A stretch of DNA of 32,854 nucleotides from Robiginitomaculum sp. (GTDB taxonomy: Bacteria; Pseudomonadota; Alphaproteobacteria; Caulobacterales; Maricaulaceae): the NCBI GenBank assembly GCA_021647805.1, contig JAKITZ010000001.1:1-32854 (forward strand). The letters run 5' to 3'. Every line of letters begins with the position of its first letter. Position 1 is the stretch's first letter. This document shows positions 24,936 through 30,294 of this stretch, one piece after another. Under the pieces are notes generated by a model. That model searched no databases and had not been told where the DNA came from. It worked only from the letters and a program-made list of their open reading frames with translations. The position numbers were made by a program, and so were the translations under genes.

Positions 24936-25434
24936 ATGACAATAATTACTGCATTATCAGACGGGAAAAGTGTTTAGGTCGGGTATAATAATGCTTGTAG
25001 CGTTGGTGATACGCCAATTTTTGAACAACATCACTGGATATATTTTGGCGATTGGGGTTTGGGATTGTCTGGCGGCGGACGACAGTAAAACACCATTAGC
25101 TGTTGCCAATACAATTCGAAACATTTTTCAAGACGAGGGTGTTTCCAAAGAAAGTAGCGATTCTGCTACTCCATCATTTGGTATGTCAGGCATATTGGTG
25201 AATAAAGACACTAGTGTTTGGGACGTAGACCATCGATTAGCTCTTGCAAGAATGCAAAACAACAAATTATGGGCTAGAGGTTCTGGAATTGATTATGCCT
25301 TGGGAGCTGACTATACGGCATTGGCTATTGATCCTCAGCTAAACCATCAACAAAGAGTTCGCATTGCCACCGAGGCCGCAATTTCTTGTGACACTTACTG
25401 CCCGGGCGAAGCTATCATATCACAATTTGTGTAA
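24936..25434 (+). pseudogene. Disrupted Ntn-hydrolase (proteasome/HslV-fold-like) gene with an in-frame TAG at codon 14 and a frameshift near 25050-25090
   Basis: ATG 24936 gives MTIITALSDGKSV, then TAG (24975-24977), then VGYNNACSVGDTPIFEQHHWIYFGDWGLGLSGGG..stop. An M-T start with beta-strand and D/G patterns is typical of N-terminal-Thr hydrolases. The +1 frame (track ORF 24970..25434) continues with ...LWARGSGIDYALGADYTAL....RVRIATEAAISCDTYCPGEAII, which resembles the GSG..YA.GA and C-terminal helix/strand region of HslV-like Ntn hydrolases. Confidence 0.5.
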
Positions 25435-25557
25435 AGGTTGTTATTGCAAATAACTTTCGCAAACTGTTCTGCGAAATGGTCAAATATAATGTCAGAAAAA
25501 ACAAACACTAGAGAACCTCAATGTTAAGGCGATTTATCTCAACAACAATATTAATTT

Positions 25558-25836
25558 TTGGTTAAATCTCAAATCGTTAGAGTTGGTGAGGGGATATATG
25601 TATATCCAAGTATTGATGATCTGATGCACAAAACTTACGATAAAATGATTGCATTAAACTTCAATAACATTAAACGCCCTGACTATAACGATTTGAGATT
25701 TAACCAAAAAGTTCAATTTTGTGGGATAATTGAGCTTGATAAAGATTGCTGGATGGAAACTATCAAATCGCGTGGACCAAACTGTATTCCTTATAACAAG
25801 CCTGTTAATGTTAATGTCAGCAAATTTAGTTATTGA
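25558..25836 (+). CDS. Hypothetical small protein (AT-rich), possibly the frameshifted continuation of a signal-peptide-like mini-ORF at 25521
   Basis: 92 aa with a TTG start and no recognisable motif. ATG 25521 encodes MLRRFISTTILIFG-stop in another frame, which ends in the T5 run immediately before this ORF. Confidence 0.3.
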   Translation: MVKSQIVRVGEGIYVYPSIDDLMHKTYDKMIALNFNNIKRPDYNDLRFNQKVQFCGIIELDKDCWMETIKSRGPNCIPYNKPVNVNVSKFSY

Positions 25837-25916
25837 TGTACGAACGAAAGATCAGAATTTCAAAGGAAGTAGAGTCTGGTCTTTTTTAGTATTCTTTTTA
25901 TGTTGTTTCTGATCTT

Positions 25917-27941: not shown

Positions 27942-28082
27942 TACGCTGCCCATAGAGTCTTTACACTACAAAAGTAACTGATGCCGACAGAGCACAAGCT
28001 TGTAAAGGCAAGCACGTGAAATAACAGCAACCTTTAGAGCCAAAGCTACAAAGAAACACCGCTTCACGCCGCGAGACAGAAA

Positions 28083-28928
28083 GTGGCGGTGAGAGTGGCT
28101 ACTTATGCTTATCACAGCAATCCAGCTTATCTTGGTGCGCTTTATTCGGTAACCAATGGCAATGTAACTTACCTGCACAAGGATCATCTCGGTTCGGCAA
28201 GCACGGGTACGATTGGCAATGGAGTTAACGCAGGCAACATTGCGTGGAACGAACAATACACACCATTTGGCGAGACTATCCTTAACCCGGCGGCAAATGA
28301 TAACCTTGATGGATTTACCGGACATATCAAGGACAAAGCCACCGGCCTGAACTACATGCAGGCGCGTTATTACGATCCGGCACTGGGTAGGTTCCTAAGC
28401 ATTGATCCGGTAGAGTTTAGCGCGGAAAGACCGGGAATGTTCAATCGTTATACTTATACATACAACGATCCAATAAACTTTACTGACCCAACGGGTATGG
28501 TCGGTGGTTGCGACAGCTGCTGGACGGACATGTATAATTCTGGGATGTCTGCTGAGAGTGCTACGATTGCTGAAGCTGGTTTTCGCCCATATAGTGAAGC
28601 GTTTGCAAAAGGCACTTTGATTGGTGCAACAATGACACCTATTGGACGGGGTGTGTCAGTAGGTATAGGTATTGCAACTAGAATTCTAACGAAAAAAGCA
28701 CTGACAACATCGCAGAAAAAAGCAGTTCGAAGCATGAAGAAGAATATAAAAGAGCATAAAGCTAGAATCAAATCAGAGAGGAAGAACCCTACTGTTAAGC
28801 CTGAAATGGTTGGTAAAACTACCAAGAAACAGCAGAAGCAACAACGTAAAACGCGAGAAAACAAACACAAACGTGATATAAAAGACTGGAAGAAACAAAT
28901 TAAAGAAATCAAGAAAGAAGCGCAATGA
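28083..28928 (+). CDS. Orphan Rhs C-terminal module: end of the RHS repeat-associated core (to DPTGM, nt 28499) fused to an unrecognised 142-aa C-terminal (toxin) domain
   Basis: ...NGNVTYLHKDHLGSAS...YTPFGE...DGFTGHIKDKATGLNYMQARYYDPALGRFLSIDPVEF....FNRYTYTYNDPINFTDPTGM is the conserved Rhs core end (YYDPxxGRF...DPxG). The variable tail that follows is VGGCDSCWTDMYNSG...GTLIGATMTPIGRGVSVGIGIATRIL...K/Q/R-rich. There is no N-terminal Rhs shell, PAAR or VgrG. The GTG start is nominal, and the frame is open from 28038. Confidence 0.8.
   Translation: MAVRVATYAYHSNPAYLGALYSVTNGNVTYLHKDHLGSASTGTIGNGVNAGNIAWNEQYTPFGETILNPAANDNLDGFTGHIKDKATGLNYMQARYYDPALGRFLSIDPVEFSAERPGMFNRYTYTYNDPINFTDPTGMVGGCDSCWTDMYNSGMSAESATIAEAGFRPYSEAFAKGTLIGATMTPIGRGVSVGIGIATRILTKKALTTSQKKAVRSMKKNIKEHKARIKSERKNPTVKPEMVGKTTKKQQKQQRKTRENKHKRDIKDWKKQIKEIKKEAQ
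28084..28098. repeat. 15-bp duplicate of the tRNA-Ser 3' end (att-like direct repeat; partner at 30204-30218)
   Basis: tggcggtgagagtgg is identical at both sites. The second copy is the reverse complement of the last 15 nt of the tRNA, including CCA. The repeat coincides with the left boundary of the Rhs-derived material. Confidence 0.55.
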
Positions 28929-29407
28929 GTTCTGGTTTAAATCAAGAAGCATATGAAGGGCTTTGTGGAAAATTCACCAAGCTTGAAAATGTCACTAGCA
29001 TGGAGTTTAGAACAACTTCTCCATCTTTGGCGTTAATCCATCTTCAAAACAAAGTAGATGACACTATGTTTGAAAAAGCTGTCATACACTTACTCGATAA
29101 CAAAGTGGAATATTTTTGCCTATCTGGCGCAGACGCTTCAAGCTTGCATGATGCTGTTGATGATACCATCATTGATGGCGGGTATGAAAAGAGGGGTTTT
29201 TTTAGAGACCTCTTTAGACCTAAAAACATACTTACCAGTTTTCACGTTGACGAAGGTATGAGTGATATACTCAACATGATAGAATTTACCGCTAGATATA
29301 AAAAGCTGAACCGGATCATAAATGTAATTTACGACCAACCTTCACCTGCAATAGATTATTTGAAAAATGTTTTGAAAAAAAATGATAGGTATTCACCCAG
29401 ACCTTAA
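28925..29407 (+). CDS. Candidate cognate immunity protein (hypothetical, 160 aa)
   Basis: The ATG overlaps the toxin stop (gcgcaATGAgt), and the same strand and AT-rich composition continue from the toxin tail. This is the standard position for Rhs/CDI immunity genes. I recognise no family motif. Confidence 0.55.
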   Translation: MSSGLNQEAYEGLCGKFTKLENVTSMEFRTTSPSLALIHLQNKVDDTMFEKAVIHLLDNKVEYFCLSGADASSLHDAVDDTIIDGGYEKRGFFRDLFRPKNILTSFHVDEGMSDILNMIEFTARYKKLNRIINVIYDQPSPAIDYLKNVLKKNDRYSPRP

Positions 29408-29614
29408 ACGCTAGGCTGCAACCTTTACACACCCGTACTGCCAAGCCGGGCGGATCAGTGGCACTTGATTATACCTATGCTTATGATGCTCGTGGTAAAG
29501 TCATCAGCATTACCGATGCAGTAACTTCGGCCAACAATCGGGTATATGCTTATGATCAATTGGGTCGGTTAACTACTGCCGCTGGGCCATGGGGTGCGGG
29601 TAGCTTTGGTTATG

Positions 29615-29691
29615 CTTCGTAGGTGGTTGGCCAACGGTCAAATAATTGATCCGGGGGATCAAATATAACCGAAGAAGGCCACGGCAGTGGC
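29615..29691 (+). mobile_element. 77-nt hairpin-rich mini-insertion, copy A (non-autonomous; no TIRs; subterminal palindromes)
   Basis: cttcgtaggtggttggccaacggtcaaataattgatccgggggatcaaatataaccgaagaaggccacggcagtggc is 67/77 identical to copy B by hand alignment. It contains palindromes gttgg/ccaac, a long hairpin at 29642-29666, and gccac-ggca-gtggc. Confidence 0.65.
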
Positions 29692-29857
29692 TTGGTAATA
29701 TCCGTACCAAGACGCTTGGTTCGCGCAATATCATCAACACTTACAACAATGCCACTAATATGGTTACGCAGACCGCAGACAGTGTCAAAGGCACTCGTGC
29801 CATAAGCCATGATGCCCGTGGTAATGTTATCTCGCTTGGCGCACAGAACTTCACTTA

Positions 29858-29934
29858 CTTCGTAGTTGGTTGACCAACGGTCAAATATTCAGTCCGGGGG
29901 ACTGAATATAACCGAAGAAGGCCACTGCAGTGGC
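29858..29934 (+). mobile_element. 77-nt hairpin-rich mini-insertion, copy B
   Basis: cttcgtagttggttgaccaacggtcaaatattcagtccgggggactgaatataaccgaagaaggccactgcagtggc. The long hairpin at 29885-29909 is a perfect 11-bp stem. Three of its base pairs differ from copy A on both strands. Confidence 0.65.
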
Positions 29935-30203
29935 GTCGGATCAACCGGTATTGATCAGCGGCTCGGCCAGTGGTAGTTATCTGTATGATGGCAATCGTAA
30001 GCGGGTGAGAAGCGTGGTAAATGGCAAGACTATTTATAACGTTTATGATGCAAGTGGCACGTTGATCCATGTGGACGATACCAGCACAGCGAAGCAAACA
30101 GACTATATCGGCAAGATCGCTCGGATAACCAATGGCAATGTAACGTATTTGCATAAAGATCATCTTGGTTCGGCGAGTTCTGGTACCACCAGCACCGTAG
30201 CAA

Positions 30204-30294
30204 TGGCGGTGAGAGTGGGATTCGAACCCACGGTACGCTATTAACGCACACACGCTTTCCAAGCGTGCGCCTTCGACCACTCGGCCACCTCACC
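30204..30294 (-). tRNA. tRNA-Ser (anticodon GGA), type II with a long variable arm and encoded CCA
   Basis: The reverse complement is GGTGAGGTGGCCGAGTGGTCGAAGGCGCACGCTTGGAAAGCGTGTGTGCGTTAATAGCGTACCGTGGGTTCGAATCCCACTCTCACCGCCA. The acceptor pairs GGTGAGG/TCTCACC, the anticodon stem is CACGC/GCGTG with loop TTGGAAA, the variable arm is GTGCG...CGTAC, and the T arm is GTGGG-TTCGAAT-CCCAC. Confidence 0.93.

Follow-up and report, generated by a model that had tools for sequence, protein, structure and literature searches.

Introduction

Elements that have no integration genes but keep both of their attachment (att) sites, attL and attR, form a described category, the cis-mobilizable elements (CIMEs) (PMC5704250). 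CIMEs are decayed integrative and conjugative elements (ICEs) or integrative and mobilizable elements (IMEs) with these sites still in place, and usually with remnants of the element as well (PMC5704250). A second described system is that of the Rhs orphan cassettes that lie downstream of full-length rhs genes, as in Enterobacteria, in which an Rhs_assc_core with a DPxG motif carries a variable toxin tip and is followed by a small overlapping open reading frame (ORF) and a further core fragment. Here, we describe a 2,105-bp islet that lies at the 3' end of a tRNA-Ser(GGA) gene and has features of both systems. The window that we analysed is a whole contig of 32,854 nt from a marine Robiginitomaculum (Alphaproteobacteria) metagenome-assembled genome (MAG), and the islet is a single case in this one MAG.

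A third system that bears on the locus is that of the casposons. Casposases make target duplications of 14-15 bp and have a preference for the very 3' end of tRNA genes (PMC6977970, PMC4046053). They integrate diverse DNA ends in vitro (PMC6977970, PMC7786333), and many casposons have ends that share a few nt with the duplication (PMC4046053).

Results

Relatives of the locus were gathered by a scan with the adjoining TonB-dependent receptor, with one genome per species, which yielded 23 loci. Two of these, L001 (NORP327) and L002 (NORP30), are close relatives with a receptor identity of 91%, and only in these two does a tRNA-Ser(GGA) gene lie upstream of the receptor gene.

In the window, the islet is bounded by a 15-mer, TGGCGGTGAGAGTGG, that is present in exactly two copies, at 28084-28098 and 30204-30218, both on the plus strand; no further copy was found in the window at up to one mismatch. 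The copy at 30204-30218 is the reverse complement of the last 15 nt of the tRNA-Ser(GGA) gene, i.e. 4 nt of the 3' strand of the T-stem, the 7-nt 3' strand of the acceptor stem, the discriminator and CCA. For both copies, identity ends abruptly on either side. The features that define the two junctions are as follows:

28084..28098, plus strand: distal copy of the 15-bp direct repeat, an exact match to the 3' end of tRNA-Ser, with no tRNA similarity beyond the 15 nt
30204..30218, plus strand: tRNA-proximal copy of the 15-bp repeat, the genuine 3' end of the tRNA gene
30204..30294, minus strand: intact tRNA-Ser(GGA) (ARAGORN; Rfam, 59.2 bits; blastn, 100% to L001 and L002)
27954..28083, no strand assigned: ancestral intergenic flank from the receptor start codon to the distal 15-mer, collinear with L002 9727/9872-10000

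A first-pass annotation of the window, made from the sequence without database searches, had placed the 15-mer at both of these positions and had recognized the second as the end of tRNA-Ser(GGA); sequence search, ARAGORN and Rfam agree with it. The same annotation had cautioned that one such repeat would be expected by chance, which was right and even understated: the window contains approximately eight independent exact direct repeats with a length of 15 nt or above, and five of these have no relation to the islet locus, against a uniform expectation of 0.5, and exact 15-16-mers repeated by chance number approximately five. Because of these repeats, the 15-mer is not significant by itself, and its weight comes from its position and from the comparison with L002.

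In L002, the tRNA-Ser is 100% identical to that of the window and is followed directly by CTTTCTGTCTCGCGGCG, which in the window is the sequence after the distal 15-mer. Window positions 28062-28098 match L002 9748-9712 at 97%, and the flank at 27954-28083 directly adjoins the tRNA-Ser 3' end in L002, which contains one exact 15-mer and no Rhs DNA. As this flank comes immediately after the tRNA in L002 but after the distal copy in the window, we conclude that 28099-30203 (2,105 bp) and one 15-mer make up an indel whose position is exactly the tRNA-Ser 3' terminus. The empty site predicted in the first pass, in which the region upstream of the receptor gene adjoins tRNA-Ser, with only one 15-mer and without Rhs material, is therefore present in L002. 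Two findings that had been named as evidence against an insertion did not turn up: the 15-mer of the Rhs-free L002 is the tRNA end itself rather than a separate receptor-side copy, and in no relative of the locus are the Rhs pieces contiguous with a full-length rhs gene.

The locus could also be accounted for with no insertion at the tRNA, either by erosion of an array that was always adjacent together with a coincidental 15-mer, or by an artefact of metagenome assembly. The number of chance repeats in the window and the origin of the contig from a MAG fit such an account; however, the stretch between the repeats corresponds exactly to the indel that distinguishes the window from L002, the flank is conserved as far as the repeat, and synteny with the relatives holds at either end of the islet (the receptor at one, tRNA and msrA at the other). 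Moreover, a 15-nt overlap is too short for a de Bruijn mis-join. We consider coincidence or artefact to be highly improbable.

The empty site in L002 is not pristine, as L002 has a separate insert of 145 bp at this tRNA end (L002 9703-9893). This insert has a 46-nt imperfect direct repeat (6 mismatches, 1 indel), which extends from the T-loop to 22 nt after CCA and encloses 99 nt with a GC content of 66% and several N's in a genome of approximately 45% GC. It looks like the scar of an older, separate att-type integration, at what looks like a polymorphic spot in the co-assembly. Since it resembles attP/attB heterology together with a decayed foreign element, it points to use of tRNA-Ser as an integration site in the genus.

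In L001, 7.4 kb of unrelated genes lie between tRNA-Ser and the receptor (L001 2630-10000) and run straight into the receptor gene. They encode a methyltransferase, a 647-aa secreted repeat protein with an NDNDHN-type tail, and a set of extracytoplasmic function (ECF) sigma factor, FecR and TonB receptor. No second copy of the 15-mer or the tRNA end was found in L001. We considered L001 as a second att-site comparison and rejected it, as the DNA after its tRNA is unrelated to the flank in L002 and in the window, with an alignment score at shuffle level.

Based on domain and blast matches, the 2,105-bp insert is fully accounted for by Rhs-array material and two repeat elements. It is a slice of an Rhs orphan array, made up of one open orphan cassette (parts A and I) and the 5' part of the next orphan core (part B). 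The cargo had been described in the first pass as a core C-terminus with toxin, an immunity candidate and a second core fragment, and these matches bear that out; what the description missed is that B is split by two 77-nt repeat elements. The features inside the insert are:

28099..28928, plus strand: part A, 5'-truncated Rhs core end with a predicted C-terminal toxin domain (TIGR03696; blastn and tblastn to L024 Rhs)
28925..29407, plus strand: part I, 160-aa immunity candidate, with a start that overlaps the stop of A (ATGA)
29389..30208 (start approximate), plus strand: part B, next orphan Rhs core fragment (blastn and tblastn to the main and orphan Rhs of L024; RHS_repeat Pfam, E 2.6e-10)
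29614..29692, plus strand: 77-nt structured repeat, copy 1, in B after the Tyr codon of a YD motif, replacing 6 nt
29858..29934, plus strand: 77-nt structured repeat, copy 2, in B after another YD Tyr codon, replacing 6 nt

Part A is open for 281 codons counted from 28083, and its NCBI entry (P0001) bears the label 'RHS repeat-associated core domain-containing protein'. The match to Rhs_assc_core TIGR03696 (E 1.3e-23) covers residues 59-139 (28257-28499); the core ends in a motif of the DPxG type, DPINFTDPTGM (NDPINFTDPTGM), followed by a 142-aa variable C-terminal domain. This candidate toxin domain (28500-28925) is Lys-rich, and no relative of it was found in Pfam or PDB. The first 51 nt of A (28099-28149) give a weak YD-repeat-like match to core residues ~916-938 (~53% nt identity, 9 of 21 codons), while from 28150 A matches the core of a full-length relative from residue ~1143 onward; A therefore appears to be an internally deleted core end. 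As a separate observation, the ~17 codons that resemble core residues ~916-938 are fused at a T-x-G-N motif to residue ~1143 (28099-28160), and B starts (29380-29400) at core residue ~940, almost where the first piece of A stops. These core positions suggest that the toxin cassette of A was once inserted into a core of the B type, or that this position of the core is a recombination hot spot.

The position of I, directly behind and overlapping A, suggests that it is an immunity protein. Its GC content is 36-38%, and its match to DUF7684 is weak (25.3 bits, below the cutoff of 26). A full HMMER search among 1.84 billion representatives gave 5 remote relatives, while an indexed search matched only I itself. 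Exact-protein look-ups with I, MsrA, the receptor and P0001 returned nothing on record. The only promoter-like match in a consensus scan lies within A and upstream of I (28510-28538); it is no evidence that the sequence is functional.

Part B corresponds to residues ~940-1170 of the full-length Rhs of L024, with 74-81% nt identity. It lies in three frame-shifted pieces (29389-29613, 29691-29858 and 29936-30208), has no toxin, and is cut off at the tRNA end; B is a pseudogene, broken by the insertion of the two repeat elements. B starts right after the immunity gene candidate, as do the orphan fragments in the arrays of L024 and L111. In these two arrays a full-length rhs gene lies upstream of the orphans; none was found elsewhere in the 32.8-kb contig. 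Homologue searches with A and with a de-interrupted B returned short orphan-type proteins only; a parent gene with more than 76% identity for the core of A or 74-89% for B was not among the results, nor was a donor array.

Several observations concern the orphan arrays themselves. In marine alphaproteobacteria, many orphan Rhs fragments (N-termini of P0007, P0008, P0009, P0012, P0029, P0101, P0105, P0124; L024 5275-5290) have in front of them a remnant of the core motif PAANDN, fused to an earlier position of the core that differs from case to case, which implies a recurrent junction point in array formation. A degenerate trace of PAANDN also lies just upstream of B (29381-29388, AATGATAG). 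Abrupt borders with non-Rhs DNA also occur in other Rhs orphan fragments. In L026 (1900-3060), an Rhs orphan fragment lies between an insertion sequence (IS) remnant of the IS5 family and a 77-nt element, followed directly by the ald gene. In L025 (1-1360, 10467-11141), an orphan fragment has on one side the remnant of an IS3-type OrfA and on the other a partial tRNA-Gly-like 3' half, which forms the boundary of an integrase-bearing prophage; this arrangement was considered as a precedent for the islet and rejected, as the partial tRNA is tRNA-Gly-like and not tRNA-Ser.

Part A has neither the N-terminal Rhs shell and delivery part nor an obvious start, and we infer from this that it cannot be an active effector. 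Because the islet lacks an N-terminal shell or secretion part, a start context and a recombinase, it presumably can neither deliver a toxin nor move by itself. Its present role could plausibly be that of an immunity gene kept by selection, or of a silent toxin tip that could recombine with a full-length rhs gene in another part of the genome.

No gene for an integrase, excisionase, transposase, Cas1, PolB or reverse transcriptase was found in the insert or in the 32.8-kb contig, which extends to the whole contig the earlier claim that the insert and its flanks contain no mobilization gene. Together with the empty site in L002, this also upholds the description of the locus as Rhs orphan-type cargo in the position and geometry of a tRNA-integrated element with no visible mobilization gene. 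The locus has the insertion at the 3' part of a tRNA gene, the reconstituted tRNA gene and the perfect 15-bp distal direct repeat of tRNA-integrated islands; it has neither the transposase nor the terminal inverted repeats (TIRs) with a short target duplication that mark an IS or transposon. An inverted match of 4-5 nt, GCTAC/GTAGC, at the insert ends was considered as TIRs or as core-type sites and was rejected as too short and asymmetric. The 77-nt elements were likewise rejected as boundaries or recombination sites of the islet, as they lie inside B and not at its ends.

Our tentative reading, which we hold with reserve, is that the islet is a non-autonomous, CIME-like element that was placed by a tyrosine integrase acting in trans. 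A slice of an Rhs array would have entered by site-specific recombination at the attB of the tRNA gene, catalysed by a tyrosine integrase encoded elsewhere, and the islet would have been left as a non-autonomous, att-flanked segment comparable to a CIME or to an island reduced in the extreme; it could be lost again if the two 15-mers recombined. Several findings argue for this reading: the repeat is the terminal 15 nt of the tRNA in direct orientation with the tRNA reconstituted, in the L002 empty site the same flank follows directly after CCA, L002 has an att-like remnant at the same tRNA end, and the toxin/immunity part is foreign in composition (36-38% GC). Tyrosine-integrase islands at tRNA 3' ends are reportedly by far the commonest source of this geometry, and because of this prior frequency the integrase class is the most likely. 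If the identical repeat, CCACTCTCACCGCCA, were used by integrase-bearing islands at other tRNA-Ser(GGA) genes, this would support an integrase.

A number of findings weigh against this reading. Neither an integrase, the gene of which in tRNA-integrated islands lies inside the element and mostly beside the tRNA, nor an integrase remnant is present in the insert or the contig, and while the islet keeps an attL/attR-like pair and lacks integration and transfer genes, as CIMEs do, the remnants of a decayed ICE or IME are absent. Both ends of the insert lie inside the Rhs core (residues ~916 and ~1168) at arbitrary positions that touch the 15-mers; the weak YD-repeat homology of A begins right at 28099. 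Because the Rhs core abuts both 15-mers, there is no room for arm-type sites or element-specific DNA, and the attP that would have to be assumed is a bare 15-mer between two Rhs fragments, whose origin needs an explanation of its own. In the hypothetical circle, the 15-mer would be read in frame through both Rhs fragments, which has a 1-in-3 chance by itself. The 15-bp block of identity also excludes the T-loop, unlike the remnant in L002. Finally, neither a circular or attP junction nor a further occupied site was found, a weak negative in collections that hold no close relatives of the locus; with the same limit, a metagenome scan with the distal junction (flank plus 15-mer, 26 nt) gave 0 matches. 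A scan of viral contigs for a non-tRNA 15-mer followed by TT gave 1 match, which is the chance level.

The junction between B and the tRNA also weighs on this side. At the tRNA side, B reads ACC GTA GCA ATG GCG and then GTG AGA. At the position of this junction, four Rhs relatives read GC(A/C) (A/G)TG GC(G/C/T) TGG (A/G)(A/C)C GA, with the protein sequence G-A-(M/V)-A-W-x-E and the consensus GC-AGTGGCGTGG. Thus, the first 5 nt of the tRNA-proximal 15-mer (TGGCG) still belong to the Rhs homology, which goes no further. Had the junction been set by an att site that has nothing to do with Rhs, an overlap of this kind would have a chance of roughly 1 in 250 to 1 in 1000. In total, the integrase class fits the locus poorly with regard to element remnants, room for arm sites and microhomology, and the junction microhomology leaves room for an integrase-independent origin.

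An origin of this kind, and the main rival of the integrase reading, would be capture. Here, microhomology-mediated end joining or template switching would have attached a piece of an Rhs orphan array, linear or copied and either native to the genome or acquired from outside, where the tRNA gene end had a break or a stalled fork. The 15-nt repeat would then be a target duplication that arose by a return to the original template 15 nt behind the point of departure or by fill-in of a staggered break. Capture would account for the natural orphan-array order of A, I and B (cf. L024 and L111), for insert ends that are arbitrary cuts in the core and have no vestigial AANDN boundary of the kind found upstream of ordinary orphans, for the 5-nt microhomology TGGCG exactly at the B/tRNA junction, and for the lack of a recombinase, TIRs or att arms. 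It leaves unexplained, however, why a junction coincides with the terminus of the mature tRNA, for which we estimate a chance of at most 1% unless the ends of tRNA genes are preferred break sites. To our knowledge, 15-nt duplications are unusual for bacterial end joining. Moreover, microhomology at 28098/28099 is not checkable in databases that hold no close relative of the 5' part of A, and the att-like remnant at the same tRNA end in L002 favours site-specific events. We regard capture as rather unlikely; a donor array with core upstream of 28099 and with GCAATGGCGTGG and a toxin downstream of 30203 would, if found, show that the fragment was copied.

An origin with no attP would also be given by a process that uses tRNA ends and is indifferent to the donor, and that pasted an arbitrary piece of an Rhs array at the tRNA-Ser terminus; the 15-bp repeat would then be a target duplication or a primer copy. 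We consider a process of this general kind, whether of the Cas1/casposase type or by tRNA priming, to be quite unlikely. In its first form, a target-specific but donor-indifferent integrase with staggered cuts ~15 bp apart would have acted on stray DNA. This would explain both the arbitrary donor ends and the placement at the tRNA terminus. The islet shares with casposons the 15-bp target duplication and a target at the tRNA 3' end that is left intact, and the casposon ends that overlap the duplication resemble the TGGCG overlap here; however, the only inverted match at the insert ends is the non-significant one of 4-5 nt, the contig has no Cas1 or PolB, and the duplication of the islet lies wholly inside the tRNA while described casposon duplications overlap it by 4-7 nt and not by 15. 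The one casposon on record for a related genus is that of Henriciella, a marine alphaproteobacterium that we take to be a close relative of Robiginitomaculum; we rejected it as a local precedent, as it has a 1-nt repeat and an intergenic site, and no casposon of the islet-like type is on record in the host lineage. A casposase-type origin is, in our judgement, very unlikely.

In the second form, the 3'-OH of the mature tRNA-Ser would have acted as a primer: its last 5 nt, CGCCA, would have annealed to UGGCG of a sense Rhs transcript, and after reverse transcription the tRNA-linked cDNA would have been inserted at the tRNA gene. The position of the junction is exactly the CCA terminus of the mature tRNA, the Rhs sense strand is the one with the 5-nt complementarity, which is the orientation required, and the distal 15-mer is like a primer-binding-site copy of the tRNA end. 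As in the primer-binding sites of long terminal repeat (LTR) retroelements, an exact complement of the 3'-terminal nt of a tRNA, including CCA, lies at the edge of inserted DNA; by contrast, the islet has no LTRs, no reverse transcriptase and a bacterial host, and its distal copy is the original tRNA end beside its original flank, so that the likeness is one of resemblance only. The orientation and position of the distal 15-mer beside the ancestral flank are not readily obtained by priming, the contig has no reverse transcriptase, and we know of no tRNA-primed process of this kind in bacteria. We consider tRNA priming to be extremely improbable.

The two repeat elements that interrupt B are 82% identical to each other, with compensatory changes in their hairpins. 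They are members of a widespread family of 65-77 nt, built of an outer stem (CTTCG/CGAAG), a hairpin that may be absent, a central hairpin of 11 bp in which the apex UCC-RGU-GGA is conserved, and an invariant 3' hairpin GCCAC-GGCA-GUGGC; in an alignment of 27 sequences, 8 of the 11 pairs of the central hairpin have compensatory changes. A metagenome scan with the 3' 21-mer of the element gave 84 matches, ~35 of them true copies (e.g. L035, L041, L052, L061, L072 and L097), in soil, freshwater and marine contigs. There are often several copies per assembly, and some lie inside rRNA operons or shortly downstream of tRNA-fMet, in the same orientation as transcription; no Rhs was found at these metagenome loci. 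The elements recur in the orphan core fragments of marine alphaproteobacterial Rhs arrays, after YD Tyr codons and in both orientations (P0008; P0009/P0012; L026 2964-3038; L111 4383-4443, 7019-7092 and 8714-8787, minus strand). The family had no match in Rfam, and an 18-mer of it was in no searchable paper; it is either REP/MITE-like (repetitive extragenic palindrome/miniature inverted-repeat transposable element) or an undescribed RNA.

The remainder of the contig contains housekeeping genes, i.e. those for branched-chain ketoacid dehydrogenase (BCKDH), def/fmt, truA, recR, infC, grpE/hrcA, rph and msrA. The stretch at 24970-25900, with rph on one side and the receptor gene's 3' end on the other, is of low GC content (33-39%) with two ORFs of 154 aa and 92 aa that have no family match; this may be another small acquired segment.

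Discussion

The islet is real and moderately unusual. Like CIMEs and other decayed tRNA islands, it has a direct repeat of a tRNA 3' end and an intact tRNA, has no integration or transfer genes and is absent from a close relative. It differs from them in that it consists of a slice of an Rhs array only and has a repeat of just 15 bp, with Rhs core touching both copies and microhomology with the cargo at one junction. With the Rhs orphan cassettes of Enterobacteria and of L024 and L111 it shares the Rhs_assc_core with DPxG, the variable toxin tip, the small overlapping ORF and the further core fragment; it differs from these in having no full-length rhs gene upstream, in sitting between a tRNA and a TonB receptor, and in the arbitrary outer cuts in its core. 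Altogether, the islet is near to known kinds, i.e. decayed or cis-mobilizable tRNA islands and Rhs orphan cassettes, and departs from them by Rhs-only DNA between bare 15-bp repeats and by the microhomology.

The weight of one islet in one MAG is modest. If the islet was mobilized in trans or is the att-flanked product of decay, it shows that a single Rhs toxin/immunity cassette is able to move to, or be maintained at, a tRNA integration site away from rhs loci, which would be a route for the spreading of immunity genes and spare toxin tips. If, instead, the microhomology reading is true, the islet would be a rare documented case of the capture of a bacterial gene fragment at a tRNA end, with a duplication that mimics the footprint of an integrase, and it would call for caution in island-finding software that takes repeats of tRNA ends as proof of integration.

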